DNA from: Planctomycetota bacterium
Lineage (GTDB): Bacteria > Planctomycetota > UBA1135 > GCA-002686595
Reading direction: 5' to 3'
Assembly (NCBI GenBank): GCA_004296785.1
Contig: SCVU01000203.1
Span: forward strand, 1-33,728
DNA: 33,728 nt
Shown here: piece after piece, positions 2,257 to 29,240 of the stretch
Numbering within the stretch: position 1 is the first letter of the stretch
Layout of the letters: each line of letters opens with the position of its first letter
Notes under the pieces: generated by a model
Seen by the model: the letters and a program-made list of their open reading frames with translations, nothing else
The model's database searches: none
What the model was told of the DNA's origin: nothing
Made by a program: the position numbers and the translations under genes

Positions 2257-2265
2257 GGCCCGCGT

Positions 2266-2271
2266 ACTCTA
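2266..2271 (-). promoter_or_regulatory. Candidate -10 element TAGAGT only 9 nt upstream of the exonuclease ATG (would imply a leaderless or near-leaderless mRNA)
   Basis: The minus strand reads gcccgcgcTAGAGTacgcgggccATG. It belongs to the same TAGAnn motif class seen upstream of four other minus-strand genes in this window. Confidence 0.3.
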
Positions 2272-2505
2272 GCGCGGGCGCCGCGGTGGAAATCCTTGCA
2301 TCTTGCAGGGGCCCGGAAGCTGGAGCATGATCGGGTCATCGTGCGATGCGCGCTGCAACAGCACCTCGGTGCCCGAGCTTCGACGAGTCGCTGCGACGCC
2401 CGGCGGGTGCGTCACCTGTCGAGCGATGGACTTCCGGGACGCCGGAAGCATCGGAGCCCGACGGCCGATCCTCTCGTGGTCGGCGGTTCGGGAAGGCCGT
2501 TTCTG

Positions 2506-2562
2506 AAAGGAGGTGGTCCTTCAATGACTACCGGTGACAGTTCTCGAGGGTTGCACTGCTAG
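2506..2562 (+). promoter_or_regulatory. Near-perfect Shine-Dalgarno (AAAGGAGGTG) plus 12-codon mini-ORF MTTGDSSRGLHC (candidate leader peptide or part of an sRNA)
   Basis: aaaggaggtg lies at 2506-2515, the ATG at 2524 and the TAG at 2560-2562. This is the strongest SD in the window. Codons are AT3-rich (act, ggt, agt, tct, cga, ttg), unlike the real genes here. The stop codon lies inside the hairpin at 2548-2602. Confidence 0.25.
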
Positions 2563-2602
2563 ACCCGTGCTCCTGACGGGGATGCACGCAGAGTGCAATC
2601 CC
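2548..2602 (+). other. Nested imperfect RNA hairpin
   Basis: The outer arms gggttgcact (2548-2557) and agtgcaa(t)ccc (2592-2602) form 10 bp with a 1-nt bulge. The inner stem cccgt (2564-2568) / acggg (2576-2580) encloses the 7-nt loop gctcctg. Confidence 0.35.
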
Positions 2603-2612
2603 AACTCACCAT

Positions 2613-2656
2613 CGCTCGGCGCTCGCGTCACTGACGCCCGCGCCGAGCGTCTTTTT
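2613..2656 (+). terminator. Intrinsic-terminator-like hairpin T1 followed by TCTTTTT
   Basis: cgctcggcgc (2613-2622) pairs with gcgccgagcg (2640-2649) for 10 bp. An inner stem gcgtc/gacgc (2625-2629 / 2633-2637) sits within it. A T-run follows at 2652-2656. Confidence 0.5.
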
Positions 2657-2814
2657 CGGAGCGAAGGATCACCGCGACGCGATCGCGCGCTCACGAGCGC
2701 CGAGCCGAATCAGGTCCTGCGGACGGCGAGGGCGCCCGCGTCACCTGACGCCCGCGCCGAGCGTCTTTTTCGGAGCGCAGCGTCGCCGCGATGCGAGCGA
2801 GTCACCACGAGCGG
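2625..2814 (+). repeat. Imperfect tandem duplication (period ~113 nt) carrying both terminator-like hairpins
   Basis: gcgtcac(c)tgacgcccgcgccgagcgtctttttcggagcg occurs at 2625-2663 and 2738-2777 and is identical except for one inserted c. Weaker similarity continues to ..tcac(ca)cgagcg.. (about 2699 and 2814). The duplication shows in frame translation as DARAERLFRS..SPR..TS twice. Confidence 0.75.
2731..2770 (+). terminator. Intrinsic-terminator-like hairpin T2 (degenerate copy of T1) followed by TTTTT
   Basis: ggcgc-cc-gcgtca-cc-tgacgc-cc-gcgcc (2731-2758) forms 11 bp with a 2x2 internal loop. A T5 run lies at 2766-2770, 7 nt after the stem. Confidence 0.4.
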
Positions 2815-2850
2815 CGACCGCCTCGTCTCCTTTTCAGACAATCCGCGCAC

Positions 2851-2879: not shown

Positions 2880-2941
2880 CCGAGCGTGTCCCCCATCGCG
2901 CGTCGCTCGACGCGCTCGCTCGCAATCGAGAGGAAGCCTCC

Positions 2942-4975
2942 ATGCTCGATTTCCTCGGCGGCCTGTTCGACACCTCGGGTTTCATGGCGCGCTGGAACTG
3001 CGGCGAGTGGAGCGCCGCGCACGGCTGGACGCACGTCGCGGCGGACCTCCTGACCTGGTCCGCGTACACCGCGATCCCGATCGTGCTGCTGTTCTACGTG
3101 CGCAAGCGCCGCGACGTGCAGTTCCACAGCGTGTTCCTGCTCTTCGGCGCGTTCATCTTCTCGTGCGGCACCGTGCACCTCGTCGAGTCGACGCTTTTCT
3201 GGCAGCCGTGGTACCGACTGTCCGCGCTGACCAAGGTCGCGACCGCGATCCTCTCGTGGGGCACCGTGTTCGCGCTGATCCGCCTGACGCCGGGCGCGCT
3301 GCGACTGCCGAGCATGGCGCAGCTGTCCGCGCTCGTCGAAGCCTCCGGCGACGCCGTCGTCGGCATGGACTTGAATGGGCGCATCAGCGTGTGGAACTCC
3401 GGCGCGGTCGCGCTGCACGGCCGTGATTCCGACGCGATGATCGGCAGCGACGTGCGCGCGCTCGTGCCGCCGGAGCACCGCGCCGAGTACGCCGACGCGC
3501 TCGCGCGCGTGCGCGAGGGCCAGGCGGTCCCGCCGTTCGACACGCAGCGCCTGCGCGCCGACGGCTCGCGCTTCGACGTGTCGCTGCGGTTGTCGCCGGT
3601 GCGCGACCGGCACGGCGCGGTCGTCGGCTGCGCGATGATCGAGCGCGACGCCACGAGCCGCAAGGAGGCCGAGCGCAAGCTGCAGCGGCTGGCGCGCGAG
3701 CTCGAGGAGGAAGCGCAGCAGGATCCGCTGACCGGTCTGCCCAACCGCCGCGCGATCGAGGCCGCGCTGGCGCGCGAGACTTCGCGCGCGCGCCGCAGCG
3801 GCAGCCACCTGCTCGCCGTGCTGCTCGATCTCGACGACTTCAAGCACATCAACGACACGCTCGGCCACGCGGTCGGCGACGTCGTGCTGCGCAACGCCGC
3901 GCGCCGCATGGCGGCGTGCCTGCGCACCGAGGACGTGCTCGCGCGCATCGGCGGCGACGAGTTCGTCGCGCTGCTGCCGGAGACGCGCCTGGCCGAGGGC
4001 CGCTGCGTCGCCGAGCGGCTGCGCCTGTCGGTGCGCGAGCAGCCGGTCGAGGCCTCCGGGCACGAGCTGCGGCTGTCGGCGAGCTTCGGGCTGACCGAAC
4101 TGCCGCACGACGTCGCGTCGATCGAGGAAGTGCTGACGCTGACGCGCGGCGCGCTCGCGCACAGCAAGGCACGCGGCAAGAACCGGCTCGCGTGGGTCGC
4201 CGGCGGCGGCCGGCTGTGCGACGACGCCGGCGGTCCGCCGCACGCGATCGACGCGCGCGAGCTCGCGCGATCGCTGCGCGTGCTCGCGCAGCCGCTGGTC
4301 GACCTGCGCCGCCGCGAGATCGTCGGTCAGGAGCTGCTCGTGCGCGGCCCGGCCGGTCCGTACGAGCGCCCGGACGACCTGTTCCGCTACAGCATCGAGA
4401 ACAACGCGCTGACCGCGGTCGACCTGTGCTGCATGCGCGCGTGCGTCGCCGCGTCGCGCCGGCTGCCGGTGCGCGGCCGCGTGCACCTGAACGCGTTCCC
4501 GAGCACGCTGCTCGTCACGCCGACCGAGCGGCTCGTCGAGCTGCTCGCGGCCGGCGGCTCGCCGTCGCGCTACTGCATCGAGATCAGCGAGCAGCAGTTC
4601 CTCGGCGATCCGGCGGCGCTGCGCTCGCGCCTGGCGGGCCTGCGCGCGAGCGGCATCGCGTTCGCGATCGACGACGTCGGCTTCGGCAAGAGCTCGCTCG
4701 AGGCGCTGATCGTGCTCGAGCCGGAGATCGTCAAGATCGACCGCAGCTTCGTGCACGGGATCGCGCGCGACGCGCAGCTCGCCGCGCGGCTCGAGCGGCT
4801 CTTGCGCACGGTGCAGGCGCTCGACAGCGAGATCGTCGCCGAGGGCCTCGAGGATCCGGCCGATCAGGACGTGCTGCTGCGACTGGGCGTGCGCGTCGCG
4901 CAGGGCTACGCGCTCGGCCGGCCGACCGAGATCGCGGACGAGGCGCTGACCGGGGACGGCGAGCTGCGCGCGTGA
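2942..4975 (+). CDS. Membrane sensor: ETR1-like ethylene-binding-domain homologue + PAS + GGDEF (diguanylate cyclase) + EAL (c-di-GMP phosphodiesterase)
   Basis: 677 aa. The N-terminal ~125 aa (3 TM helices) aligns by eye with plant ETR1: AADLL..AYTAIPIVLLFYVRKRR..FLLFGAFIFSCGTVHLVE..TKVATAILS versus ISDFF..AYFSIPLELIYFVKKSA..LVQFGAFIVLCGATHLIN..AKVLTAVVS. Cys75/His79 (nt 3164-3178) correspond to ETR1 Cys65/His69. GGDEF is intact (RIGGDEF, nt 3950-3964) and the RxxD I-site (RTED) has canonical spacing. The EAL domain has an ELL variant (nt 4331-4339) plus conserved N (NAFPS), EISE, DDVG, KID, EGLE and QGY. GAGAGGAAG lies 5 nt upstream of the ATG. Confidence 0.9.
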   Translation: MLDFLGGLFDTSGFMARWNCGEWSAAHGWTHVAADLLTWSAYTAIPIVLLFYVRKRRDVQFHSVFLLFGAFIFSCGTVHLVESTLFWQPWYRLSALTKVATAILSWGTVFALIRLTPGALRLPSMAQLSALVEASGDAVVGMDLNGRISVWNSGAVALHGRDSDAMIGSDVRALVPPEHRAEYADALARVREGQAVPPFDTQRLRADGSRFDVSLRLSPVRDRHGAVVGCAMIERDATSRKEAERKLQRLARELEEEAQQDPLTGLPNRRAIEAALARETSRARRSGSHLLAVLLDLDDFKHINDTLGHAVGDVVLRNAARRMAACLRTEDVLARIGGDEFVALLPETRLAEGRCVAERLRLSVREQPVEASGHELRLSASFGLTELPHDVASIEEVLTLTRGALAHSKARGKNRLAWVAGGGRLCDDAGGPPHAIDARELARSLRVLAQPLVDLRRREIVGQELLVRGPAGPYERPDDLFRYSIENNALTAVDLCCMRACVAASRRLPVRGRVHLNAFPSTLLVTPTERLVELLAAGGSPSRYCIEISEQQFLGDPAALRSRLAGLRASGIAFAIDDVGFGKSSLEALIVLEPEIVKIDRSFVHGIARDAQLAARLERLLRTVQALDSEIVAEGLEDPADQDVLLRLGVRVAQGYALGRPTEIADEALTGDGELRA

Positions 4976-7146
4976 CGCGCGCGCGCGGCGCCGAGCGCGA
5001 GCGCCGCGAGCAGCCACCACGTGCCCGCCAGGATCTCGCGCGCACCCGGGGGCCCGCGCCGCGCCGCGCTCGCGAGCGCCGCGCAACCGCCGCCGCCGCC
5101 GTCTCCGCCGTCGACGTCGAAGCCGGCCGTGACGAGCACCGCCTGGCCCTCGGCGTCGCACACCATCACGCTGTGCGCGCCGCCGGACAGCGCGGGCACG
5201 ACGACCGTGATCGTCTCGTCGTCCCACACCGTGAGGTCGGTCGCGGCGACGCCGCCGAGCCCGGTCTCGGGATCCGCGCCGAACACGACCGCCATGTCGG
5301 GCGTGAAGTGCAGGCCGCTGACGGTGACGACGTCGCCGGCCGCGCCGAAGGACGGCTCGATCGACGCGAGCTGTGGGTCGGGCTCGTTCGCGTACGCGAA
5401 CAGCCCGCTCGCGACCGCGCCGCCGGCGATCTCGAGCTCGAGCAGGTACGGCCCGCCCGCCGCGCCCGGCGGCGTCTGGATCCGCACGCGCTCGTCGTCG
5501 AGCACCTCGACCGCGGCGACCGGCTGGCCGTCGATGCGGACCTGCACGCCGTCGGCGTAGTGCTCGCCGCGCAGCAACAGCTCCGTGCCGCCCGTCGCGG
5601 TGCCGGCGGTCGGGAAGATCGTCTCGATCGATGGCAGCAGCGCAGCCTGCACCGCACCGGGCAGGCGGCCCTCGACGCCGCTCGCGTCGACGACGACGAG
5701 ATCGTGCACGCCGTCGGCGGTCGCGGCCGTCGTCACGCGCAGCGTCTGAGCGTCGACGAGCTCGAGGCCGCTGCCCTGCGCGTAGATCCGATCGCCGAGC
5801 GCGACGTGCAGTCCGCTGCGGAACGCGCTGCCCTCGACCAGCACGACGGTGCCGCCGTCGGAGTCGATCGCGCTCGGCGAGACCGCGTCGACCTGCGGCT
5901 CGGGCGGCACGACCTCGAGCGCGCCCGGCAGCCGCGCGAGCTCGCCGGCGCCGCTCGTCGCGACGAGGTCGTAGTTGCCCGTCGCATGTCCGACCGGCAC
6001 GTCGACGAACAGCTGCACCAGCCCGCCCCACAGCGCGACCGCCGTCACGTCGATCGCGGGGTCGCTGCACGCGAGCGCGACGCCGGGCAAGAGCCCCGCG
6101 CCGTGCAGCGAGAACGGCGTGGTCTCGCCGCTCGTCGCGCGCAGCGGGAACGCGTCGGACGAGCTGCCGAGCGCGAGGCCGTGCAGCGGCGGCACCGCGA
6201 TCTCCCCCACCTGCGTCGCCGCCCCCGCGGCGACGACGACCGGCGTGCCGAGCGCGCTCGCCTCGAACGACGTCGCGATCGACCAGCCCGTCGTCAAGTT
6301 GTACGAGCTCACCGGGCCGTCGAGCGGTCGCGCGTAGACGCGGTACGTGCCCGGCGCGAGGCCCTCGAGCTCGAACGCGCCGAGACCGTCGCTGAGCACG
6401 CTCGCGGCCTGCCGCCCGCTCGCGTCGAGCGCGACGACGAGCGCGCCGGGAACTTCGTCGCCGTTGCTCGCGCGCGCGACGTTGCCGACGAGCGCGCCGC
6501 TCTCACCCGGCTCCGGGTACGCACAGCGCAGTCCGACCGCATCGTCCGCCGAGACCGAGCGGTGCAGCACCACGCTGGGATCGACGTACGGATAGAGCGT
6601 CGCGCCGGCCGAGCCCGAGTGATCGAGGCCGAGCAGGTGGCCGAGCTCGTGCGCGCCGACGTCCGCGACGTCGAAGCGACCGAGCTCGCCGCTGGTCGTG
6701 AAGTGATAGCTCGCGCCGTTGAACAGCACGTCGGCGTCGGTGATCTTGCCCTGGCTCGTGAACCAGATCGGCGTGATCGCGACGACGCCCGAGCCGAACG
6801 GGAAGTAGCCCGACGCGTTCGTCTCGTCGAAGACGATCGAGTGCAGGTCGTCGGACGCCCAGTCGGTGCGCGCCTGCTGCACGCTCGACTGATTCTCGAC
6901 CAGCCGCGCGGTCGTGCCGTCGACCTCGTTCCACGCGCGGATCGCCGCGCGCAGCGCCGCGAATTCCTCGGCGCCGTCGAGGTCGTCCGAGCCCGCGGCC
7001 TGCAGCACGACCGAGATCGAGCCGGGGTTCGCCCAGTACAGCGGCTTCTTGTTGGCCGGATTGTGCAGCCGCACGTGCGACCAGCCGAGCGCGGCGGAAG
7101 CCGCGATCGCCGCCGCGGCCGCGGCGAGCGCGCGAACCGTGCGCAT
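4906..7146 (-). CDS. Secreted matrixin-like metzincin 2: catalytic domain + CarboxypepD_reg-like domain + multiple IPT/TIG domains + Gly-Cys/TM/basic C-terminal anchor
   Basis: 746 aa starting at MRTVRALAAAAAAIAASAALG (signal peptide). The listed ORF 4906..7902 is an upstream in-frame extension running over the neighbouring gene. HELGHLLGLDHS lies at nt 6616-6651. The Met-turn position reads ATLYP (Leu instead of Met). ..VPGALVVALDASG..FELEGLAPGTYRVYARP.. resembles the carboxypeptidase regulatory-like fold. At least 3 clear IPT/TIG repeats are present. The C-terminus is GGGGGC..ILAGTWWLLAALALGAARARHAR. The start codon overlaps the stop of the upstream gene (TGATG). Confidence 0.85.
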   Translation of the reverse strand: MRTVRALAAAAAAIAASAALGWSHVRLHNPANKKPLYWANPGSISVVLQAAGSDDLDGAEEFAALRAAIRAWNEVDGTTARLVENQSSVQQARTDWASDDLHSIVFDETNASGYFPFGSGVVAITPIWFTSQGKITDADVLFNGASYHFTTSGELGRFDVADVGAHELGHLLGLDHSGSAGATLYPYVDPSVVLHRSVSADDAVGLRCAYPEPGESGALVGNVARASNGDEVPGALVVALDASGRQAASVLSDGLGAFELEGLAPGTYRVYARPLDGPVSSYNLTTGWSIATSFEASALGTPVVVAAGAATQVGEIAVPPLHGLALGSSSDAFPLRATSGETTPFSLHGAGLLPGVALACSDPAIDVTAVALWGGLVQLFVDVPVGHATGNYDLVATSGAGELARLPGALEVVPPEPQVDAVSPSAIDSDGGTVVLVEGSAFRSGLHVALGDRIYAQGSGLELVDAQTLRVTTAATADGVHDLVVVDASGVEGRLPGAVQAALLPSIETIFPTAGTATGGTELLLRGEHYADGVQVRIDGQPVAAVEVLDDERVRIQTPPGAAGGPYLLELEIAGGAVASGLFAYANEPDPQLASIEPSFGAAGDVVTVSGLHFTPDMAVVFGADPETGLGGVAATDLTVWDDETITVVVPALSGGAHSVMVCDAEGQAVLVTAGFDVDGGDGGGGGCAALASAARRGPPGAREILAGTWWLLAALALGAARARHARSSPSPVSASSAISVGRPSA

Positions 7147-7772
7147 CAGCGAACCTCCGCGCCCTTGCTCGACGCGCCCTTCGCGGCGGCCTTCGCCGCG
7201 CGGGCCTTCACCCCGCGCTCGATCTCGCGCGCCAGCCGCTCGTACGAGAGCGGCGCGCCGCGCGCGCCCTCGCTCGCGACGCCGGTGCGCGGATCGACGA
7301 GCGCGAGGCTCGACGTGTCCGTGTACGCGAACGCGTGGCCCTGCGCGTCGACGTGCACGCGCGCGCAGCCCTGCGCGAGCCCGACCGGCAGCCGCAGTCC
7401 GTCCGCGCCCGCCGCCGACAGGAACAGCACGCAGCGCTCGCCCGGGCCGGGGATCGGCACGCCGGCGAGCAGCAGACCGCTGCCGTCGTCGAGCACGCCG
7501 CCCGGCAGGCGCACGACGCGCTCCTGCAGCGGCTCGCCAAGCCACGTGCGGCCGACGTCGAGCGTGAGCTCGGTCAGGATCCGGCGCCCCGGCTGCTCGA
7601 TCGCGCGCGCCGAACGCACGCGCGCATCGACGATCAGCTCGGCGCCGTCGACGAGCGCGGCGGTGTCCATCCGCACCACGGTGCTCGCGCGCACCGACGG
7701 CGCGCCGTCGTGGAACAAGGGCAGGGCGACGAGCCCGACGAGGAGGCCGGCGGCCAGCAGGAGCGGACGCAT
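7146..7772 (-). CDS. Secreted hypothetical protein (208 aa), translationally coupled to matrixin 2
   Basis: Signal peptide MRPLLLAAGLLVGLVALPLF. GC3-rich frame. Lys/Ala-rich tail KARAAKAAAKGASSKGAEVR. Its TGA (7148-7146) shares one nt with the matrixin-2 ATG (7146-7144). I recognise no family. Confidence 0.7.
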   Translation of the reverse strand: MRPLLLAAGLLVGLVALPLFHDGAPSVRASTVVRMDTAALVDGAELIVDARVRSARAIEQPGRRILTELTLDVGRTWLGEPLQERVVRLPGGVLDDGSGLLLAGVPIPGPGERCVLFLSAAGADGLRLPVGLAQGCARVHVDAQGHAFAYTDTSSLALVDPRTGVASEGARGAPLSYERLAREIERGVKARAAKAAAKGASSKGAEVR

Positions 7773-7837
7773 GGTGGGGAAGAGGCCATGCGCGGCGTAG
7801 GGACAGCCGCTGTGGGGAAAGCGGTCCCGCGCTGGGT

Positions 7838-7843
7838 TCTCTA
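7838..7843 (-). promoter_or_regulatory. Candidate -10 element TAGAGA upstream of the 208-aa gene / matrixin-2 pair
   Basis: The minus strand reads gggcgacTAGAGAaccc, 65 nt upstream of the ATG at 7772. It is a member of the recurrent GC-run + TAGAnn motif. Confidence 0.3.
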
Positions 7844-7924
7844 GTCGCCCAGTTCGTCCGCCGTTTCAGCGCATCTTGAGCGCGAGCCCCGCCGCGGCGC
7901 ACGGCGCGCGCGCGCCGCGCCGAG

Positions 7925-7950: not shown

Positions 7951-9654
7951 TCAGGGCGCCAGCACGTGGATCACGCCGAGCTTCGAGAACAGGAAGCTGC
8001 TCGTCGGCACGTCGAACACGATCCACTGCAGCGGCATGTCGACCCCGTACAGCGTCGGGTCGTTCGCGAGCACCGCGGACTTCTTCGCGACGCCGCCGGT
8101 CGGGCCGACGCCCGTCGTGACCGCCGCCATTTGCACGAGCGCGTTCTGGTACAGGAAGCAGCCCGGCATGCCGACCGCGCCGAGATCGAACGGCAGCGGG
8201 AACCCGAACCAGCTCGTCGTGCTGCTGCCCATCGACAGGAACGCCGGCATCCCGCCGGGCACGCTCTCGACGCGCACCTCGATGCCGCCCGGGTGCGCGA
8301 CGTGCGTGTCGCCGACGAAGCCGAGGATCGGCTTCGCCGCGGTCGGCGCGCACGCGACGCCGCTGTCCTGGAAGTAATTCTGCAGCCAGCCGTTCGGCGC
8401 CGCGGCGATGTCCCACACCCACGGGTTGCCGATGAAGAACGGGCTCGGGCCCGCGAACGTCGCGTAGTCGAACGCCTTGAACGTCTGCTCGCCCGCGTCC
8501 GACGCATCGCCGTCGGAGTTCGTGTCGCGCAGCCGGTGCACGACCGCGTCGCCCTGGTCGATCGCGCCGACGTAGATGCCCTCGGGCGACGCGTCGAGGC
8601 CGGTGATCTGGTCGATCTGGAACGGCGCGCCGCTGGTCGTGCTGCCGTCGTAGTACAGGCGCACCTCGCCCGCGTCCTGCAGGTCTTCGTCGGAGTTCAG
8701 ATCGACGCCGCGATAGACGAGGCCGTTGACCGCCTGGCCGAGCGTGTTCAGCGCGTTGAAGCCGGCCGGCTGATTCGTCGCGAAGTACCACGCGGTGACG
8801 CCGCCCTCGTCGCGCGAGCACAGGTAGCACAGCTTGCCGTACACGAAGCCCTTGCCGCCCGGCGCGGGCAGCACGAGGCTGCGCAGCTGCCCGTTCGCCC
8901 AGTCGGCGTTCTGCGGCAGCGCGGGGCTCTTGCCGGCCGCGTTGAGGTACAGGCGCGACTCGCCCGGATCGGCGAGGTCGGCGTCGGAGTTGCGCCGCTC
9001 GAAGCGCATCAGCGCTTCGTCGTCGCCCTGCACGTACGCGATGACGACGTTGTTCGAACTCGCCAGGCGCAGCAGCGCCGCGCCGTCGAGCGGGACGGGG
9101 CCGAGATCGGTGCCGACGAAGTTCGCGCTCGCTCCGTCGATCATCTTCTCGCTCTCGCCGGCGTCGTTCGCGTCGCCGTCGCCGTTCAGGTCGATGCAGC
9201 GGAACAGTCCGAGCGCCTGGCCGGCGTCGGAGCACCACCACACCGCGGAGTCGGCCGTCGGCGCGAGCCCGTCGGGGCTCGTCTCGCCGTCGAACGTGCT
9301 GATCAAGCGGAAGCGCGACTCCTCGCCGAGGTCGATGCGGCCGTTGCCGCTGTCGTCGGTCGCGCGGAACAGGAGATCGCGCTGCGTGTCGATCCAGTAG
9401 AGCACCGGCTTGGGGCCCTCCATCCGCGCGAACACGCTGCGCGGGCTCGAGAAGTTCGCGCCGAGCATGTCGTCGTAGAACAGCGCGCGCACCTCGCCGC
9501 TCGACAGGTACTTCCCGTCGCCGTCGAGGTCGGTCAGGCGGACCAGCTGGTCCTGCGTCGTCTCCACGAGATAGACGTCGGATGCGGTCTGCCCGGAAGC
9601 GGGAAACGCCGCGCAGACTGCGAGCGCGGCGGCGAGGAGAGCGGGGCGAGACAT
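7951..9654 (-). CDS. Secreted six-repeat Ca-loop (DxDxDG..GE) propeller-like protein 1 with shared C-terminal module
   Basis: 567 aa from MSRPALLAAALAVCAAFPASGQ (signal peptide); an alternative ATG lies at 9693. Six spaced loops are present: DLDGDGKYLSSGE, DDSGNGRIDLGEE, DLNGDGDANDAGE, NSDADLADPGE, DLNSDEDLQDAGE, DTNSDGDASDAGE. The C-terminal 133 aa (nt 7954-8352) starts at a Cys and matches the module in its paralogue. Confidence 0.8.
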   Translation of the reverse strand: MSRPALLAAALAVCAAFPASGQTASDVYLVETTQDQLVRLTDLDGDGKYLSSGEVRALFYDDMLGANFSSPRSVFARMEGPKPVLYWIDTQRDLLFRATDDSGNGRIDLGEESRFRLISTFDGETSPDGLAPTADSAVWWCSDAGQALGLFRCIDLNGDGDANDAGESEKMIDGASANFVGTDLGPVPLDGAALLRLASSNNVVIAYVQGDDEALMRFERRNSDADLADPGESRLYLNAAGKSPALPQNADWANGQLRSLVLPAPGGKGFVYGKLCYLCSRDEGGVTAWYFATNQPAGFNALNTLGQAVNGLVYRGVDLNSDEDLQDAGEVRLYYDGSTTSGAPFQIDQITGLDASPEGIYVGAIDQGDAVVHRLRDTNSDGDASDAGEQTFKAFDYATFAGPSPFFIGNPWVWDIAAAPNGWLQNYFQDSGVACAPTAAKPILGFVGDTHVAHPGGIEVRVESVPGGMPAFLSMGSSTTSWFGFPLPFDLGAVGMPGCFLYQNALVQMAAVTTGVGPTGGVAKKSAVLANDPTLYGVDMPLQWIVFDVPTSSFLFSKLGVIHVLAP

Positions 9655-9716
9655 GGCGGCGAGTTCCGAGAGCGCGGTGCCGAACGCCTGCATCCTACCA
9701 GGGCCGCGAATGCGGA

Positions 9717-9722
9717 GTTCTA
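9717..9722 (-). promoter_or_regulatory. Candidate -10 element TAGAAC upstream of propeller-1
   Basis: The minus strand reads gcccggcTAGAACtcc, 62 nt upstream of ATG 9654 and 23 nt upstream of the alternative ATG 9693. Confidence 0.3.
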
Positions 9723-9755
9723 GCCGGGCCCGGGCATTTCAGGGCCTGCGAGCGG

Positions 9756-9800
9756 TGCGAAAACGCACGCGGGCCGCGCCACTGCCGTGGGCGGCCCGCG
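9756..9800 (-). terminator. Intrinsic-terminator-like hairpin after propeller-2
   Basis: On the minus strand, cgcgggccgc / gcggcccgcg form a 10-bp stem (plus-strand 9768-9777 and 9791-9800) with a 13-nt loop, followed by tgcgTTTTcgca. It lies 34 nt downstream of the TAG at 9834-9836. Confidence 0.45.
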
Positions 9801-9833
9801 TCGGAGTCGCGCGCTCGCGCGCGCGGCCGGCCG

Positions 9834-11555
9834 CTACTGGTACAGCGTCGCGACGCCCAGCGCGGACAGCCCGAGCTGCGCGAAGATCGGCTCGATCACG
9901 ACCCACTGGAACGGGACCGGCACGCCGTTCAGGCCCGGATCGGCCGGAATCGTCAGCGTCTTCGACAGCGTGCCCGAGGCGTTCATGAAGCCCTTCAGCG
10001 AGAACGCGAGGTCCTGGTACAGCGTGCAGCCCGACAGTCCGAGCACCGTGAGGTCGAGCGGCAGCGGAACGCCGGCCCACGTCGTCGTCGACGCGCCGAG
10101 GTACAGGATCGCCGGCAGACCGGGCAGCCCGTTCTCGACGCGCACCGCGAAGCCGGTCGTGCCGAGCTTCGGCGTGCCGCTCGCGCGGATCTGCGGCAGC
10201 GGGCCGAAGTACGAGCACGGCGTGCCGCTGATCGACCAGCCGAACTGGAACGCGCCCGCCGGAGCGACCGCGATGTCGTTGACGAACGGCGCGGCCGGAA
10301 TCGGCGCCGCGCCCTGGTAGTTGACCGAGTCCCACGCCGCCTGCACCTGCTCGCCGCCGTCGTTCGCATCGCCGTCGGCGTTGAGGTCCTGCAGGAAGTG
10401 CACGCGGTTCGCGCCGTTGTAGTCGCAGACGTACATGCCGTCCGCGCTGCCGTCGAGGCCGACGACCTTGCCGATCTCGAAGGCCGAGTACGACGTCGTG
10501 CTGCCGTCGTAGTAGAGGATCACTTCGCCGGCGTCGTTGATGTCGTTGTCGAGGTTCTGGTCGAGGCCGCGGAAGATCAGGCCGTTGATGCCCTGGCCGA
10601 GGAAGTTCTGCTTGAACTGGCTCGTGTTCGACGAATCGCAGGCGAGGTAGTAGACGCGCGTCGCGCCCTCGGTGCGCGTCGCGACGTGCGACAGACGGCC
10701 GTAGGTGTTGTTCGCCACCGACACGAGCAGGCTGCGCAGCGCGCCGCTCGCCCAGTCGGGATTCTGCGGCAGCAGCGCGTTCTTCGCGGTCGCGTTGAGG
10801 AACAGGCGCGCCTCGCCCGCGTCGAGCAGGTCGCCGTCGTTGTTGATGTCCTCGAAGCGGAACGCGGCCTCGTCGAGCCCGTCCTCGTACGCGATCACGC
10901 CGTTGCCGTCCTCGGCGAGGCGGCGCAGCGTCGCGCCGTCCATCGACTTCGGACCGGCGTCGGTCTCGACGGTGAAGCTGCCGGCCATGCCGTTGATCAG
11001 CTGCGCGGTCTCGCCCGCGTCCATCGCGTCGCCGTCGGCGTTCAGATCGCGGCAGCGGAACAGGCCCTTGTCGGTCTCGGTGATGTTCGCGACCGTGCCG
11101 CCCGACCACCACACCGCGCCGTCCGCGGCGACCGCGAGGCCGTCGCCGCCGAGCTTTCCTTCGAGCGTGCCGAAGTCGTAGAAGAGCGTGACCTCGCCGC
11201 CGGTGAACGAGCCGTCGCTGTTCGAGTCAGCGCCGCGCCAGATCGCACCGAGGCCGTTGCTCGGCGTGCCGGTCGTGACCTTCTGGTCGTACCAGTACGC
11301 GACGGGAACGCCCGCCTCGGTCGTGTACTCGGCGGTCGTGATCCAGTTGCCGAGGTTCTGGTAGACGGTGCCGAGCTCGTACTGCGAGGCCCAGAAGCCG
11401 TCGGAGTCGATGTCGCGCGCGACGAGGATCTGGTCCTGGTTCTGCGCGTCGTCGACGATCAGGAGATCGCGCTGCGGCACGACTTGCGCGAGCGCGGGGA
11501 GGCAGAGGAGGCACGGCGCCGCGACGAGGCGCAGCGAGAGTCGGGTGCGGATCAT
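9834..11555 (-). CDS. Secreted six-repeat Ca-loop propeller-like protein 2 (paralogue of 7951..9654) with shared C-terminal module
   Basis: 573 aa from MIRTRLSLRLVAAPCLLCLPALAQ. The listed ORF 9834..12734 is an in-frame upstream extension. The six loops are DIDSDG, DSNSDGSFTGGE, DLNADGDAMDAGE, DINNDGDLLDAGE, DQNLDNDINDAGE, DLNADGDANDGGE. It is collinear with propeller-1 throughout. The C-terminal 127 aa is nt 9837-10217. Confidence 0.85.
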   Translation of the reverse strand: MIRTRLSLRLVAAPCLLCLPALAQVVPQRDLLIVDDAQNQDQILVARDIDSDGFWASQYELGTVYQNLGNWITTAEYTTEAGVPVAYWYDQKVTTGTPSNGLGAIWRGADSNSDGSFTGGEVTLFYDFGTLEGKLGGDGLAVAADGAVWWSGGTVANITETDKGLFRCRDLNADGDAMDAGETAQLINGMAGSFTVETDAGPKSMDGATLRRLAEDGNGVIAYEDGLDEAAFRFEDINNDGDLLDAGEARLFLNATAKNALLPQNPDWASGALRSLLVSVANNTYGRLSHVATRTEGATRVYYLACDSSNTSQFKQNFLGQGINGLIFRGLDQNLDNDINDAGEVILYYDGSTTSYSAFEIGKVVGLDGSADGMYVCDYNGANRVHFLQDLNADGDANDGGEQVQAAWDSVNYQGAAPIPAAPFVNDIAVAPAGAFQFGWSISGTPCSYFGPLPQIRASGTPKLGTTGFAVRVENGLPGLPAILYLGASTTTWAGVPLPLDLTVLGLSGCTLYQDLAFSLKGFMNASGTLSKTLTIPADPGLNGVPVPFQWVVIEPIFAQLGLSALGVATLYQ

Positions 11556-11631
11556 GGCAGGGGCGAAGGGAACGGAAACTGGGGTTCGAGCCGCGGAAAG
11601 CGGCCCTTTTCGGGAGTTCGAGAGGCGCCGG

Positions 11632-11637
11632 ATTCTA
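11632..11637 (-). promoter_or_regulatory. Candidate -10 element TAGAAT upstream of propeller-2
   Basis: The minus strand reads gagggcggTAGAATccgg, 76 nt upstream of the ATG at 11555. Confidence 0.3.
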
Positions 11638-11707
11638 CCGCCCTCCCCCGCCGCGCACCCGCGGCGCGCGGCGAAGATCCGGCAAGGAACGCCCAAAGGC
11701 CGCAGGC

Positions 11708-14467
11708 CTATTGCAGCAGGCAGCTTGCGGCGGTGCTCGTGTCGAGCGCACCGCTCGCGCCGTCGAAGAACAGCGCCTCGAGCCACACCGTGACGCCGGC
11801 GAGGCCGGTGCCCGCGGGCACGGCGACCCCGAGCGTCGCGGTGCCGGCGGCCGACAGCGGCGCCTGCGCGACGCTGCGCAGATCGAGCAGGTTGCCGTTG
11901 CCGATCTCGAAGGTGACCAGCCCGGGGATCACGGTCGCGCCCGGCTGGCTGGCCGCGACGAGCCAGCTCCAGCCCGCGCCCGCGCTGCCGACCGGGACGA
12001 CGAGCGTCGCGCCCGTCGCGTGCGTCGGCGGCGACTGCTGCGCCGGCGGCGAGGTCGCACTGATCGCGAGCGCGGCGCTGCCGCTGCCCTGCGCGGTCGT
12101 CACGACGACGTCGACCGAGCCGAGCGCGAGCTGCTGCGGCAGCGCGAACGCGACCTGCCCCGCGCCCTGCGTGAACGCGACCGGCGCGCCGCCGACCGTC
12201 ACGCTCGTCGCGCCGCCCAAGCCGCTGCCGCTGGCGGCGATCGCCGCGCCGCCGATCGCCTGCGCGGTCGCGGGCGCGAGCGCGAAGACCGGCGGCCCCG
12301 GCGGCGGCGCCGCGTTCCAGCGCGTGACCGCGAACTGGTCGAGGTTCCAACCGCCGAAGTTCAGCGTCGCATTGGCCTTGATGCGGAACTCGAAGACGAC
12401 CGCGCTCTTGCCCGCGGCCTGCGCCGTCACGTCGAGGTCGAACGCGCGCCAACCGAAGTCGGTGAGCGGCGCGCCGGCGGGGTTGCGCCACACGAGCTGA
12501 TTGTCGCACCACAGCTCGGAGGAGTCCTTGACGCGATCGTCGACCGTCAGCCAGCGCGCGAACTCGACGTGCACGTTCGCCGCGCTCGCGCAGTTGATCG
12601 CGGGCGAGCGCAGCCACGTCCAGCCGTTCGCCGCGTACTCGCCGTTCGACGTGAGGTCGGTCCCCCACGCTTTCGCGCCCGCGAACGCCTGCGCCGGATC
12701 GCCGCCCTTGCCGGCCGGCGTGCCGCGCGCCCAATCATCGGTGCCCGAGTACGCGCCGTGCGTCCAGCCCTCGTCGGTCGCGGCCTCGAAGCCGTTCGCG
12801 TACAGCGTGGTCTTCGAGCCGGCGAAGAACTGCAGCACCTCGCCACCGAGCGCGGCGCCCGTCGGCAGATCCTCGGTGCCTCCGGCGGTGTCGGTCGCGC
12901 TGACGTAATAGCGCACGACGAGCGGCGAGCCCGCGCCGGGGATCAGCGCGGAATACGTCGAGCCGCTCGCGCTCATCGGCGCGCTCGACCACTGTGCGCC
13001 GCCGTCGAACGACCAGTGCAGCGTCGCGCTCGCGACGCTCGCCGCGGTCAGCGACGTGATCTGCGCCGAGACGAGGTACGGCCCGACGCCGTCGTTCACG
13101 TCGGCGAGCGGCGCGTGCGCGATCGCCAGGTCGAGCGGTTCGGCCAGCGCGGCAGCAGAGGCGGCGACGCCCTGCGCGATCAGCTTCGCGAGATCGAAGT
13201 CGGTGCACGCGAGCGCGACCGTGTCGTTGAGCGTGTGGATCGGCCCGTAGTAGTCGGGCAGGTCCTCCGAGAAGTACGCGGCCGGGATGCCCTGCGTGTT
13301 GTACGACGCGTGATCGGAGCTGCCGGCGTCGAGGATGTCCCACCACGAGGCCCAGCCCGGCACGTGCAGCGCGCTGATCGCGTCGCAGAAGCCGGTCAGC
13401 GAGGTCGACGAGCTGTTGGTCGTGAAGTCGCAGTCGACGATGTCGCCCGGCTTGCGGTACGCGACCATGTCCATGTTGAGCATGCCGAGCACTTGCTCGC
13501 CCGCGAGCTTGGCCTGCTGCGCGTTGTACGCCGAGCCGAGCAGCCCGAGCTCCTCGCCCGAGAAGAACACGCAGCGCACCGTGTGCTCGTACGCGCCGCC
13601 CAGCTTGAGCGCGCGCGCGATCTCGAGCAGCGCCGCGGTCCCCGACGCGTTGTCGTCGGCGCCGGGCGCGTTGAGGCTCGGGCCCGACTGGTTGATCGAG
13701 TCGTAGTGCGCGCCGGCGATCACGACCTTGTTCGGGAACAGCGTGCCCGGGATCTCGGCGATCACGTTGCGCGACATCGACGCGTTGAACGTCTGCAGGA
13801 TCGGCGCGTAGCCGTAGCTCTGCAGCTCGGCGACGAGCATGTTCTGCGCGGTCGTCGCGCCCGCCAGGTTCGCGCGGCGCGTGGGGATCGCGGCGAGCTG
13901 CGTCGTCCAGTTGACGATGCGCGCCTTGTCGATCGCCGCCGCGACGGCGCTGATGCGCGCATCGGGCTGTGTGAGCGACACCGCGATCTGGTCGGCGCGC
14001 GCGCCGCGCCACACCACCGGCGGCGCGGGCTCGATCGCGGCGGCCGCCGTCGTCGCGATGCGCAGCGGACCGCAGTGCGGCCGCCCGGCGGCATCCGACT
14101 CGCGCAGCTCGCACTCGCGCTCGCTCGTCGCCGCGACGAGCACGCGGCCGTCGAAGCGGAACACCTCGCGCGTGCCGGCGGGAGCGCTCCAGTCGGGCTC
14201 GTGCGCATCGAACGCGTACAGCTCCTCGCCGCGCGAAAGCGGCGGCAGCGGCACGAGCACCACGCCCTCGGCGAGCAGGCCCGCGCGCTGCTCGTCGTCG
14301 ACCGCGCCGACGCCGAACGTGCCGCCGTCCCACCACAGCTCGCAGCAGCGCGCGAGCGCCGCGTCGCTGCGCAGCAGACCTCCGTGCAGGATCGCGACGG
14401 GCTCGCGCGGCTGTTGCGCGGCCGCCGCGGAGACGACGCAGGATGCGAGAGCGAGCGAGCGAATCAT
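11708..14467 (-). CDS. Secreted multidomain M28-family zinc aminopeptidase 2 (N-terminal domain + M28 + Ig-like + jelly-roll/MAM-like + IPT/TIG + shared C-terminal module)
   Basis: 919 aa from MIRSLALASCVVSAAAAQQ. The listed ORF 11708..16909 is a spurious in-frame upstream extension. M28 metal and catalytic motifs are in order: GAHYDS, GADDNASG, FSGEELGLLGS, NMDMV, SSDHASY. These are followed by ..LYANGFEAATDEGWTHGAYSGTDDWARGTP.., then IPT/TIG (PPVFALAP..TSVTVGGAPV..), then a 105-aa tail (nt 11711-12025). Its ATG overlaps the stop of the upstream paralogue (ATGA, 14467-14464). Confidence 0.9.
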   Translation of the reverse strand: MIRSLALASCVVSAAAAQQPREPVAILHGGLLRSDAALARCCELWWDGGTFGVGAVDDEQRAGLLAEGVVLVPLPPLSRGEELYAFDAHEPDWSAPAGTREVFRFDGRVLVAATSERECELRESDAAGRPHCGPLRIATTAAAAIEPAPPVVWRGARADQIAVSLTQPDARISAVAAAIDKARIVNWTTQLAAIPTRRANLAGATTAQNMLVAELQSYGYAPILQTFNASMSRNVIAEIPGTLFPNKVVIAGAHYDSINQSGPSLNAPGADDNASGTAALLEIARALKLGGAYEHTVRCVFFSGEELGLLGSAYNAQQAKLAGEQVLGMLNMDMVAYRKPGDIVDCDFTTNSSSTSLTGFCDAISALHVPGWASWWDILDAGSSDHASYNTQGIPAAYFSEDLPDYYGPIHTLNDTVALACTDFDLAKLIAQGVAASAAALAEPLDLAIAHAPLADVNDGVGPYLVSAQITSLTAASVASATLHWSFDGGAQWSSAPMSASGSTYSALIPGAGSPLVVRYYVSATDTAGGTEDLPTGAALGGEVLQFFAGSKTTLYANGFEAATDEGWTHGAYSGTDDWARGTPAGKGGDPAQAFAGAKAWGTDLTSNGEYAANGWTWLRSPAINCASAANVHVEFARWLTVDDRVKDSSELWCDNQLVWRNPAGAPLTDFGWRAFDLDVTAQAAGKSAVVFEFRIKANATLNFGGWNLDQFAVTRWNAAPPPGPPVFALAPATAQAIGGAAIAASGSGLGGATSVTVGGAPVAFTQGAGQVAFALPQQLALGSVDVVVTTAQGSGSAALAISATSPPAQQSPPTHATGATLVVPVGSAGAGWSWLVAASQPGATVIPGLVTFEIGNGNLLDLRSVAQAPLSAAGTATLGVAVPAGTGLAGVTVWLEALFFDGASGALDTSTAASCLLQ

Positions 14468-17490: not shown

Positions 17491-18327
17491 ATGAGTCCAC
17501 AGCCGCTCGATCTGTCGAACGTTCAGATCCCGACCCTGCCCGAGGTCGTGACGAAGCTCTCGGCGATGGTCGAGAATCCGCTCGTCGGCATCGCGGAGAT
17601 CGGCCGCACCGTGCGCGAGGACGCCGCGATGACGACGCGGCTGTTGCGCGTCGCCAACAGCGCCACGGTCGGGCTGAGCGAGCCGGTGCTGTCGGTCGAG
17701 CAGGCGACCGCGACGCTCGGCGCGCGCGCGGTGCGCAACCTCGCGCTGCAGGCCGCGGTGATCGACCTGTTCGAGGACCTGCCGAGCACCGACGAGCTCG
17801 ACATCCAGCTCGTGTGGCGCCACGCGATCCTGACCGCGCAGGTCGCGCAGCTGCTCGCGACGGAGCTCAAGGCGGGCCTGCCGCTCGCGCCCGACGAGTA
17901 CTACTCGTGCGGCCTCGTGCACGACATCGGCAAGCTCGTGCTGCTGCAGGCGCTCGGCGAGGAGTACCTCGCGGTGATGCACGACGCGCGGCGCAACGGC
18001 AAGGCGACGCACGTCGCGGAACAGGAAGAGCTCGGCTACACGCACGTCGACGTCGGAGCGCGCGTCGCCGCGTACTGGCGGCTGCCGCCGGTGCTGATCG
18101 AAGCGCTGCAGTTCCACCACGGCCCGCTCGAGCGCATCCGCGCCGACAAGAGCATCGCCGTGGTCGCGTTCGCGGACCAGATCGCGTACCGCGTGCAGGC
18201 GGGGGCGGCCGACGCATGCGTCGCGACGCTGCGTCCGGAGGCGGGACGGGTGCTCGGAATCGCGCCGCAGGCGTTCGAGCGGATCGTCGCGCAGGCCGCC
18301 GAGCTGTGGCCGACGATCCAGCCGTAG
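17491..18327 (+). CDS. HDOD domain protein (HD-related output domain, signalling)
   Basis: 278 aa. IPTLPEVVTKLSAMVENP.., ..MTTRLLRVANSA.., ..SVEQATATLGARAVRNL.. and ..CGLVHDIGKLVL.. match the HDOD pattern. Confidence 0.85.
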   Translation: MSPQPLDLSNVQIPTLPEVVTKLSAMVENPLVGIAEIGRTVREDAAMTTRLLRVANSATVGLSEPVLSVEQATATLGARAVRNLALQAAVIDLFEDLPSTDELDIQLVWRHAILTAQVAQLLATELKAGLPLAPDEYYSCGLVHDIGKLVLLQALGEEYLAVMHDARRNGKATHVAEQEELGYTHVDVGARVAAYWRLPPVLIEALQFHHGPLERIRADKSIAVVAFADQIAYRVQAGAADACVATLRPEAGRVLGIAPQAFERIVAQAAELWPTIQP

Positions 18328-18725: not shown

Positions 18726-18844
18726 TCGACGCCGCGCGGCGACGCCGCGGCACGCGCGGCGCACAAGCCGCGTAACGCGCGCCGCACGGCGCGGATGCTA
18801 ACGGAGCCGGAATCCACGGCTCCCCTCCCACCACCGGAGTGCCC

Positions 18845-24414: not shown

Positions 24415-27400
24415 TCAGTTACCCGTCGGAAGGTCTTGCCGGCCCAGGTTGTAGAGCCAATCGAGCAGCGCCTGGATCTGCACCTCGGCCTTGCCCGGGT
24501 ACAGCGCCTGGTGCGACTCCTTGTCGGCCGGGAAGTTCACCGGCATCGAGGTGCCCGGGTAGACCTTGCCGGGGTTCTGGATCCACGTGTGGACCCAGTC
24601 CTCGCGCAGGCGCTCGTGCGTGTTCTTCAGGTCGGGCGCCCACTGGATCGGCAGCGCGGAGCCGCCGCCCGGGCCCTGCCCGTTCAAGTAGTGGCACTGC
24701 ACGCAGTACGGGCCCGATGCATCGCGCGCGAGCTTCTCGGCGCGCGCGAGCTGCTTCGGATCCGCGGCGAGCAGCGCCGACACGTGCGCGGGCGAGCGGC
24801 GCACGACGCGCTCGTAGCGCGGATCGACCGCCGGCGCCACGCCGTCGAAGCCCTGCGCGTCGCCCCAGGCCTTCACCTTCGCGAAGCTCGCCTGGATCTC
24901 GGCGCGGCCGCCGTTCTCGATCGACGCGAGCGTCGCGCTCGGGATGCCGATCGCGCCGGCGAGCTCGTCGAGCGACAGCTTGCGCGCGAGGCGCAGTTTG
25001 CGCGCGTAGTAGGCCGGCCAGTCGCGCTCGGCCTCGTACGCGAAGTAGTCGGCGATCGCGCCGGCCTCGCCCGCGTCGTAGTGGAAGCTCGGCATGCGCA
25101 CGCGCAACTGCTGGCGCAGCGTGATCGGATCGTTGAGGAACGCGTAGAACCAGTCGCGCTGCAGCTTGTCGCCTTCGCCGAGCAGCACCGGCGGCGCGAA
25201 CGTCCAGCGCACCTTGTCGAGCTCTTCCTCGGAGTACTTGCGGAACACGCCGTCGACGTCGCCGACGCCGCCGTCCGGATCGGGCGTGCGGCTGACCTCG
25301 TTCTCGCCGGATTCGTCCGCGACGAGCGGCTTCAAGTACCAGTCGGTGACGACGCGCACGAGATCGCCGCCGACCGGCGCGCGCACCTCGAGCAGGTCCT
25401 TCGCCTGGATCGCGATCGTGTCGCCGATGTCGCCGAAGTCGGGCTCCGGACGCAGCAGGCGCAGCGAGAGTTCGGCCGCATCCGCATCGAACTCCTCGTC
25501 CTCGCTCTTCATGTACGCGACGTAGTCGGCCCAGTGCTCGGACCAGCGGTCCATGCGCGGCGGGAGCTTCTCGCCCTCGAGCTTGCGGATCTCCGCGCCG
25601 ACCGTGTGCGCGACGCCGTTCTCGTCCTTGAACGTGACGAGCCCGGGCTCGAGCACGTGACAGGCCGCGCAGTTGTTCTGCCGCACCGCGCGCAGGCCGG
25701 CGTCGCGCGCCTTCTGGCTCGCGTTCGGCAGCATCTTCGCGCGCTGCACCTCGTCCTCGACCAGGCCGACGACGAACGTCGTCAGCGCCTGGATCTGCTC
25801 CTCGCTGAACCCGAAGTACGGCATCCGCAGCTTCTCGGTCGGGTTCTTGATCTTCTTGCGGTCGTACGAGCGCGGCGCGTGCAGCTTCTGCGTCAGGAAG
25901 TTGCTGTGGTAGCTCTTGTACAGCTCGACGTCGTGCTCGTCCCAGCCGTGCGTCTGCGCGAGGATGTCGGGCATGAAGCCGAAGTCGAGCTTGTCGACCG
26001 TCTTCGTCGCCCACGCCGTCAGTTCGGCGCCGATCGGCATCATCGTCTCCATGCCGGCGACCTCGTGGCACGAGTAGCAGCCCTGGTGCGTCACGTACTT
26101 CTCGCCGACCGCGACCTGCAGATCACCGAGGCGGTCCCAGCGGTGCTTGTCGTCCTTGCCCTCGAAGCGCGCCTCGAGCGTCGCGCGGCCGTCGCGCAGG
26201 AAGAACCAGCGCGCCTGCTCCTGCAGCACCTCGAGTGATGCGGGCGGCAGCTCGGTCTTCCAGCCCTGCGGCACGTCGTGGAAGATCTGGTCGGGATCCT
26301 GCATCAGGTACGCGGTGATGTCCGCCGCGGTCTGGTCCGACAGCCGCAGGTTCGGCATGCGCGTGTCGGGCCAGTACTGCGCGGGATCCTTGACCCACGC
26401 GTAGAGCCAGTCGGCGTTGAGCTTCGTCGCGACGCCGCGCAGGTTCGGGCCCATCTCGTTCTCGCCCGTGCGCTCGTGCGTCATGTCGCCGCCGATCGGC
26501 GCGGGCTCCGTGCCGTACGGCGCCGTGTTGTGGCAACCGAGGCAGCCCGCCAGGCGGAACGCCTCGCGCCCGCGCACCGCGTCGCCCTCGAGCGGCATCG
26601 GCGCGACCTTCTGCACCGGGTGGCGCACCTGCAGGAACGTCGTGACCGCGGCGACCGCGGAGTCGTTCCACTCGCGGCCCTTGAGCTCGCGCCCCTCGCC
26701 GTACTTCGACTTCACGACGACTTCCTCGTCGGCGAAGTTCTCGAGGTTGAAGATCTGCGGCATCCGCGTCGTCGGACGGAACGCCTTCGGGTGCGCGATC
26801 CAGCTCGCGATGAACTCCGGCGTGAGCTTCGCCATCAGGTTCTTGAGCGACGGCCCCGGCTTGCGCGTCGTCGGGAACCACTCGACCTTGTGGCACGCGT
26901 AGCAGCCGTACTCCTCGAACAGCTGGTAGCCCTTCGACACGCGCGGCGCGTCGGGCGCGATCAGCTCCATCGAGTCCTTGTGGCACTGCACGCAGCCGGC
27001 CTCGGCCATCCCGCTCGGCAGCATCGGGTAGTCCCAGTGGTGCTGCTTGTGCCAGTGGTGCTCGGCCTCCCACTCCTCCTGCTGCTTGTCCGTCAGCGGG
27101 CGGTGGTCGACGCGCACGAAGTCGAGCGCCTCGCCGCAGCCGCGGTGGCAGATCGTGCAGCCGACCTTCGACAAGGGGTGCGACGACTTCGCGGTCAGGA
27201 ACAGGTCCAGGCGCGGGTGCGACGTGTACGGCTGCGCGGCGTCGTCGAGCCCGGCTCGATCGATGCCCATGTGGCAGCTCTGGCACATGTCGATGCGCTT
27301 CTTCTTCGTGAAGTTGAGCTCGAAGGTCAGGTTGTCGAGCGCGACTTTCTGCACCTTCAGGTTCGGGCCGATGAAATCGAGGCCCGGGAAGTCGCGCACG

Positions 27401-29213: not shown

Positions 29214-29240
29214 TCGGCTTCGTGGTGGCTTCCGTGGAGG

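Follow-up and report, generated by a model that had tools for sequence, protein, structure and literature searches.

Rodriguez et al. are said to have proposed, in 1999, Cys65 and His69 of the plant ethylene receptor ETR1 as the ligands of the Cu(I) that the receptor reportedly needs, and alanine at D25, Y32, I35, P36, I62, C65 or H69 is said, from the 2006 work of Wang et al., to abolish ethylene binding. Among bacteria, SynEtr1 of Synechocystis (slr1212, also named UirS) is a membrane protein that binds ethylene and controls phototaxis and biofilm formation; its signal runs via a GAF domain of the cyanobacteriochrome type and a histidine kinase rather than via enzymes of cyclic dimeric GMP (c-di-GMP) turnover. 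Lacey and Binder reportedly described it in 2016 as a functional ethylene receptor. For AzoEtr1 of Azospirillum brasilense, too, ethylene binding has reportedly been found, along with effects on biofilm formation and on the colonisation of roots, and reviews from the Binder laboratory reportedly note bacterial proteins of the family with GGDEF, EAL and other outputs. Here, we describe a predicted member of this last class in an uncultured bacterium of the Planctomycetota (GenBank assembly GCA_004296785.1). The contig SCVU01000203.1 was analysed at its full length of 33,728 nucleotides (nt), which we call the window, and positions are counted from its first letter. The gene in question, at 2942-4975 on the plus strand, encodes a membrane sensor of 677 amino acids (aa) with an ethylene-binding-type domain at its N-terminus, which an earlier note on this DNA had proposed to be an ETR1-type homologue fused to PAS, GGDEF and EAL domains, with a copper-dependent input of ethylene or another small ligand into c-di-GMP turnover.

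The gene is complete, stop codon included, and is supported by the list of open reading frames (ORFs), which gives an ATG start and exactly this span, by Pfam matches, by its codon composition and by its substitution pattern. The GC content is 0.96 at third and 0.49 at second codon positions (GC3 and GC2), typical of genuine genes in the window, where overall GC is 70-75%. A Shine-Dalgarno-like GAGGAAG (2930-2936, plus strand), read directly from the sequence, lies 5 nt 5' of the ATG, and the collinearity of the N-terminus with homologues supports this start as well. From N- to C-terminus the protein consists of a short conserved motif, three transmembrane helices, a PAS, a GGDEF and an EAL domain. 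These domains were called by Pfam and NCBIfam searches of the whole protein, with rival N-terminal families sought down to an expectation value (E) ≤10. ETR1_N (PF25487) matches aa 27-122 with 110.8 bits against a gathering score of 27 (E 3.8e-32, model positions 2-97 of 97), and with 115.3 bits when the N-terminal 133 aa are taken alone. It is the sole match of the N-terminus, other Pfam and NCBIfam families being absent even at E ≤10; a sensor family with a better fit, which the earlier note had allowed for, was found neither there nor by a PDB sequence search. The PAS (aa 127-242), GGDEF (aa 258-415) and EAL (aa 443-661) domains match Pfam at E of about 1e-13, 4e-41 and 3e-39, respectively. 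GAF, HisKA and HATPase_c are all absent from the protein in Pfam, so that the whole-protein architecture is not that of ETR1, and the claim that the output is PAS-GGDEF-EAL instead of a histidine kinase was borne out by the domain matches and the intact catalytic motifs. Because the domain is now the Pfam family ETR1_N, recognising it is a matter of routine rather than a discovery: family and architecture alike are already in public data, and the 677-aa protein adds an uncommon member.

The evidence for the ligand-binding part comes from three kinds of alignment. An Arabidopsis ETR1 N-terminus used as a query matched database proteins named 'ethylene receptor' at 92-95% identity, and those database proteins served as the reference receptors. 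BLASTP aligns 114 aa of the sensor N-terminus with P0140, a plant protein that JGI names 'ethylene receptor', at 30% identity (E 8e-11); a MAFFT alignment of 35 bacterial and plant N-termini and an hhalign comparison of two profiles, one from 17 bacterial and the other from 15 plant sequences (108 columns, 99.2% probability, E 7.4e-20), complete the set. All three pair C75 and H79 with C65 and H69 of ETR1, and D35, Y42, I45, P46, I72 and K98 with D25, Y32, I35, P36, I62 and K91; Cys75 and His79 do not lie outside the ligand columns, an outcome that the earlier note had named as one that would speak against it. The sole gap relative to the plant receptors is in the loop between helices 2 and 3, which is 3 residues shorter in the bacterial proteins. 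The mixed MAFFT alignment shows conservation of 90% or more at D35, Y42, I45, P46, F68, F71, I72, C75, G76, H79 and K98.

Within the domain (three transmembrane helices, 3020-3307), helix 1 provides the predicted pocket residues D35, Y42, I45 and P46 (3044-3079). The Asp that the earlier note had recognised in AADLL, opposite SDFF of ETR1, is D35, and its AY..IP corresponds to A41-Y42..I45-P46, aligned with A31-Y32..I35-P36. Helix 2 contains C75-G-T-V-H79 (3164-3178), the predicted Cu(I) ligands, spaced by one turn of the helix, with Cys75 encoded by TGC at 3164-3166 and His79 by CAC at 3176-3178; the FGAFI..CG..H match of the earlier note was found again here, F68-G-A-F-I72 aligning with F58-G-A-F-I62. 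Helix 3 carries K98-V-A-T-A102 (3233-3247), which aligns with K91-V-L-T-A95 of ETR1 as the K-V-x-T-A match had predicted. Only the Y.V.K match at the loop needs a small correction, the Tyr being one column off (F51-Y52 against Y41-F42 of ETR1). The Pfam match and these alignments show that the N-terminal three-helix bundle is a true homologue of the plant ETR1-type and bacterial ethylene-binding domains, and that every residue reportedly required for ethylene binding by ETR1 is conserved in it.

N-terminal to the Pfam model, aa 1-26 (2942-3019) contain a conserved motif, LFDTSxFxxRWxCGxW, which is predicted to be periplasmic and was delineated from representative homologues, hhalign and BLASTP. 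R17, W18, C20, G21 and H31 are invariant in 81 of the nearest representatives and mostly invariant or near-invariant in 68 more; Cys20 itself is invariant in one of these two sets and at least 90% conserved in the other. Both hhalign and BLASTP align N19-C20 with the plant N5-C6. Cys4 and Cys6 of ETR1 are the cysteines of its dimer disulfide, and Cys20 aligns with Cys6, Cys4 having no counterpart. The periplasmic RWxCGxW may be an ancestral element for dimerisation or copper loading of which the plant Cys4/Cys6 pair would be the remnant. At the same position, proteobacterial relatives, including an Azospirillum protein, have PHGxCxxW.

An AlphaFold2 (AF2) model of residues 1-133, built with a 35-row alignment, reached a mean per-residue confidence (pLDDT) of 91.4 and a predicted template modelling score (pTM) of 0.77, and its helices at 25-55, 62-84 and 91-121 agree with three Kyte-Doolittle hydropathy peaks. 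The full-length model computed without an alignment had a pLDDT of 38.6 and was not used. A cluster RKRR between helices 1 and 2 fits an arrangement with the N-terminus outside and the C-terminus inside, which would place PAS-GGDEF-EAL in the cytoplasm.

The structures 5M3C, MorA (4RNH) and RbdA (5XGB) match aa 123-677, the predicted cytoplasmic part, over its whole length at E from 6e-48 to 1e-37. The PAS domain (3320-3667) is matched by PAS_4, PAS and PAS_9 with 52.4, 49.3 and 49.0 bits (E 1e-13 to 1e-14) and by TIGR00229 of NCBIfam with 73.9 bits; no cofactor motif was recognised in it, and it is likely a transmitter or a secondary sensor. The diguanylate cyclase domain (GGDEF, 3713-4186) rests on Pfam, on structure alignments and on its motifs: the active-site motif G337-G-D-E-F341 (3950-3964) follows five residues after the inhibitory I-site R328-T-E-D331 (3923-3934), and the metal- and GTP-binding residues D-x-D..N..D (LDLDDFKHINDTLGHAVGD, 295-313) as well as K409..G412-K-N are aligned with MorA 4RNH and 5M3C. 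The RxxD I-site is also kept in the relatives P0020-P0023 and P0028. In the EAL phosphodiesterase domain (4268-4924), supported by Pfam and the alignment with MorA and 5M3C, the signature is E464-L-L (464-466; 4331-4339), and E464, R468, N517, E547/E550, D577/D578, K598, E634/E637 and Q654 are aligned with both structures. The intact GGDEF with RxxD I-site and the ELL-variant EAL with all catalytic residues were thus described correctly before. A feature left unremarked then is loop 6 of the EAL domain, D577-DVGFGKSS585 (4670-4696), which reads DDVGFGKSS as opposed to the canonical DDFG(T/A)GYSS. A loop DDVG[F/Y]G[K/R]S[S/A] was found alongside E[L/M/F]L in about 20 of the 120 best homologues, and together the two mark a GGDEF-EAL subfamily, of which no characterised member is known to us. 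Among the closest homologues, the variant-loop GGDEF-EAL module also occurs on REC-, CHASE- and PAS-linked proteins from other phyla.

To place the sensor domain among its relatives, its N-terminal 133 aa were searched with HMMER exhaustively over representative clusters, which gave matches to 7,290 clusters at E ≤1e-3 and to 629 at E ≤1e-30. The nearest relatives were examined as 149 representatives in sets of 81 and 68. ETR1_N and a C[GA]xxH within the first 260 residues were present in every one of the 149; D35, C75, G76, H79 and K98 are invariant in both sets, whereas Y42, I45, P46 and I72 never vary in one set and reach at least 90% conservation in the second. HATPase_c marks 114 of the 149 as histidine kinases, often with a PAS directly after the sensor domain, while GGDEF occurs in only 2 and EAL, at E ≤1e-5, in none, so that the GGDEF-EAL output is a minority fusion in a large, mainly kinase clade. 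The close sensor-domain relatives that bear names belong to Planctomycetales, Phycisphaera and Gimesia, which by itself makes a high-GC planctomycete the probable host. The same architecture as in the 677-aa protein was found in P0020 (84% identical, on the syntenic contig L082), P0021 (52%) and P0023 (44%), both from metagenome-assembled genomes (MAGs) of Planctomycetota, and P0022 (49%). P0028 is an ethylene-binding-type relative without PAS, and the more distant P0091, P0093 and P0105 have several PAS domains each, the sensor domain of P0105 being without the conserved Asp, Tyr and Lys. A scan of genome contigs returned matches to PAS and GGDEF-EAL modules only and none to the N-terminal domain.

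The gene is under purifying selection: against the L082 orthologue, the ratio of nonsynonymous to synonymous substitution rates (dN/dS) is about 0.27 for the whole gene and 0.23-0.29 for each domain taken singly, the sensor domain having the smallest dN (0.074, dN/dS 0.23). Among the orthologues, the sensor domain is conserved at least as much as the catalytic domains, with 90% identity compared with 76-84% in P0020 and 60% compared with 40-51% in P0022. The P0020 gene itself (L082:2740-5004) has a 2-nt insertion at codon 634, in EGLE of the EAL domain, that shifts the frame into an Arg-rich tail and yields a 754-aa product; either the assembly is wrong at this point or the population carries a pseudogene.

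Taken together, the reading that we favour, and hold to be fairly probable on the basis of sequence, is that of an inner-membrane protein in which ethylene or a similar ligand, bound in a Cu(I)-dependent manner, modulates the turnover of c-di-GMP. The protein would dimerise and hold Cu(I) inside the membrane by Cys75 and His79 of helix 2, and ethylene, or a chemically similar small ligand of Cu(I), would bind at this site. The resulting movement would pass through helix 3 and the cytoplasmic PAS and shift the balance, in one direction or the other, between c-di-GMP synthesis by GGDEF, subject to product inhibition at the RxxD site, and hydrolysis by EAL; the altered c-di-GMP level might then change surface attachment, biofilm formation or motility.

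Several observations weigh against this reading. At the fold level, the PDB sequence search with the N-terminus gave chance matches only (E >1), and Foldseek of the AF2 N-terminal model against PDB gave none at E ≤0.001, the best having an E of 2.2. At the level of the locus, no conserved neighbours were seen among the five orthologue loci, except for the near-identical L082, and the window contains no gene for a copper transporter, a copper chaperone or other copper handling. The signal might in truth be sensed by the PAS domain, or by it as well; the non-canonical loop 6 may make the phosphodiesterase atypical in activity or regulation; and the pocket or its specificity may differ, R17, W18, C20, G21 and H31 being missing from the Pfam model and common to the plant proteins only in part. 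Furthermore, we know of no characterised ethylene-binding-domain protein with a GGDEF-EAL output, and no source of ethylene is evident in the habitat, probably aquatic, of this uncultured planctomycete.

Three other explanations were considered. The one that survives best leaves the input as it is and grants the protein one catalytic output only, making it, for example, a dedicated phosphodiesterase with a GGDEF domain for the allosteric binding of GTP or c-di-GMP, or a cyclase regulated by c-di-GMP binding to its variant EAL domain. Many tandem GGDEF-EAL proteins are built in this way, loop 6 is non-canonical, and the top NCBIfam similarities, all well below the cut-offs, are to the phosphodiesterases DibA and DosP; however, both active sites have all their catalytic residues and keep them in the five orthologues examined, and we regard a single output as a serious contender that would sooner fail than hold.

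A domain that does bind Cu(I) and feeds c-di-GMP turnover, with a signal other than ethylene (other alkenes, CO, NO, isocyanides, redox state or copper), appears unlikely to us. The spread of relatives over thousands of environmental clusters (7,290 at E ≤1e-3) speaks for it, as do the nearest named relatives, Planctomycetota MAGs with no obvious plant association, and the additional residues C20, H31, R17 and W18, which are invariant in bacteria, unconserved in plants and could reshape the site. Against it stand the conservation of all residues reportedly needed for ethylene binding by ETR1, the fact that the bacterial domains so far tested are said to bind ethylene, and the ethylene that reportedly arises abiotically in sunlit water, so that no association with plants would be required.

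That the three helices are mainly an anchor or dimerisation module, with the PAS domain or I-site feedback as the real regulator, is very improbable: PAS-GGDEF-EAL modules 41-49% identical to this one do carry unrelated N-termini (REC, CHASE), the PAS resembles those of proteins both with and without an ethylene-binding-type domain, and partner and copper genes are absent nearby, but if the helices did no more than anchor the protein, D35, C75, H79 and K98, polar and buried, would not be invariant over 149 representative clusters, nor would this domain be the most conserved among orthologues.

Returning to Cu(I)-dependent ligand binding that modulates c-di-GMP turnover, its more specific form would be a one-component pathway of Planctomycetota in which ethylene at a membrane Cu(I) site directly switches the making or degrading of c-di-GMP, with RWxCGxW as a possibly ancestral element; on this form our doubt and our expectation are nearly in balance, doubt being slightly the stronger. 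If it is true, no ethylene receptor before this one would have had a second-messenger enzyme as its output in place of a kinase-type one, and the finding would suggest that ethylene sensing is widespread in non-photosynthetic bacteria without plant association. If ethylene binding and ethylene-dependent turnover hold, a gaseous signal would act directly, with no phosphorelay between, on the chief control by which bacteria change between a sessile and a motile way of life. The protein would also offer a compact system for testing how ethylene-binding domains transmit their signal, because the readout is enzymatic, and the abundance of the domain in environmental bacteria sets the 'plant hormone receptor' in a far wider microbial context.

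In the window, the sensor gene appears to stand alone. It is flanked by two genes for matrixin-type (Peptidase_M10) proteins, a secreted metalloprotease at 24-1538 on the plus strand and a second one, with IPT/TIG and CarboxypepD_reg domains, at 4906-7902 on the minus strand, and also by a gene for a PolB-type 3'-5' exonuclease. In the ORF list, the minus-strand ORF 4906-7902 is convergent with the sensor gene and overlaps its 3' end by 70 nt (4906-4975). Genes for an M28 peptidase, an HDOD protein, cytochromes b and c and a phosphofructokinase lie farther off. The HDOD protein (17491-18327, plus strand, E 1.7e-54) belongs to a signalling family and is encoded 12.5 kb downstream, with no evident link to the sensor gene. 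The minus-strand region 24415-30017 encodes, among others, a protein of 1,210 aa that has cytochrome c domains as well as a match to HTH_3, adjoined by split cytochrome b genes (28131-29213 and 29241-30017), and looks like a respiratory bc-type cluster. The large ORFs 18839-21118, 21143-23386, 7951-9693 and 9582-12500 had no Pfam match, and no tRNA or tmRNA was found in the window.

Between the exonuclease and sensor genes, we noticed a conserved element of ~400 nt (2257-2657, plus strand), which recurs in two related contigs (L082:2165-2570 and L083:2436-2838) with about 90-96% identity and with compensatory changes in predicted stems. It is not coding, because 1-nt indels occur in it, and its similarity stops exactly at a strong terminator, a hairpin followed by TCTTTTT (2613-2657, -30.4 kcal/mol, z -3.8). 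Rfam gave no match anywhere in the window and for the element none even at E ≤1. A role as leader of the sensor gene was considered and rejected: in L083 the element adjoins the exonuclease gene, while the ~700 nt fetched downstream contain no gene with an ethylene-binding domain, and its terminator precedes a non-conserved spacer of 285 nt. The element is either a candidate small RNA or belongs to the exonuclease gene as a long, divergent leader. Inside it, at 2525-2563 on the plus strand, a perfect Shine-Dalgarno sequence (AAAGGAGGTG) is followed by a 12-codon ORF (MTTGDSSRGLHC, then stop). This ORF has a single substitution in L082, Leu to Val, for which a change in the facing arm of a predicted hairpin compensates, so that an RNA structure seems likelier than a micro-protein. 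A direct repeat of 73 nt (2631-2703 and 2745-2817, plus strand; 84% identical, the first 33 nt fully so) duplicates the 3' arm of the terminator and its T-run; the second copy is absent from the orthologous locus in L082 and folds no better than shuffled sequence.

Among known systems, the plant receptors ETR1 and ERS1 share with the 677-aa protein a homologous three-helix domain at 30% identity, the cysteine and histidine proposed as Cu ligands, the pocket residues and the predicted orientation, with the N-terminus out and the C-terminus in. They differ in what follows the membrane domain, which is GAF-histidine kinase, with or without a receiver, in ETR1 and ERS1 and PAS-GGDEF-EAL here; moreover, the RWxCGxW motif is peculiar to the bacterial clade, a counterpart exists for just one of the two cysteines that form the plant disulfide, and the host is a bacterium.

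The ethylene-binding-type domain also occurs on seven Azospirillum plasmids. On plasmid p1 of A. brasilense Sp7, L088:3977-5554 encodes a 525-aa protein with the order sensor domain, PAS, HisKA and HATPase_c, which is probably AzoEtr1, the protein reported to have been characterised biochemically. The PLSDB gene table has no feature at this position (NZ_CP012915.1), and several other Azospirillum plasmid records are likewise unannotated where the domain matches. The Sp7 sensor domain is ~40% identical to that of the 677-aa protein, gapless by eye over aa 1-123, and the two have in common C20, D35, Y42, C75, H79, K98 and a PAS directly after the sensor; the Sp7 protein differs in its HisKA-HATPase_c output and its PHGxCxxW motif, against GGDEF-EAL and RWxCGxW in the 677-aa protein. 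Because AzoEtr1 reportedly binds ethylene, the statement in the earlier note that no non-cyanobacterial protein of this kind had been characterised is probably too broad, although for the GGDEF-EAL class it stands as far as we are aware.

On the output side, the closest likeness is to RbdA (PA0861, 5XGB) of Pseudomonas aeruginosa, MorA (4RNH) and 5M3C, whose cytoplasmic part and catalytic residues are like those of the 677-aa protein, and, together with DosP of Escherichia coli, these proteins resemble it in that a sensor domain sets the turnover of c-di-GMP. They sense O2, GTP or unidentified signals via PAS or haem, and an ethylene-binding-type domain, as in the planctomycete protein, is present in none of them, whereas the EAL domain of the 677-aa protein belongs, unlike theirs, to the subfamily that combines E[L/M/F]L with the DDVG[F/Y]G[K/R]SS form of loop 6.

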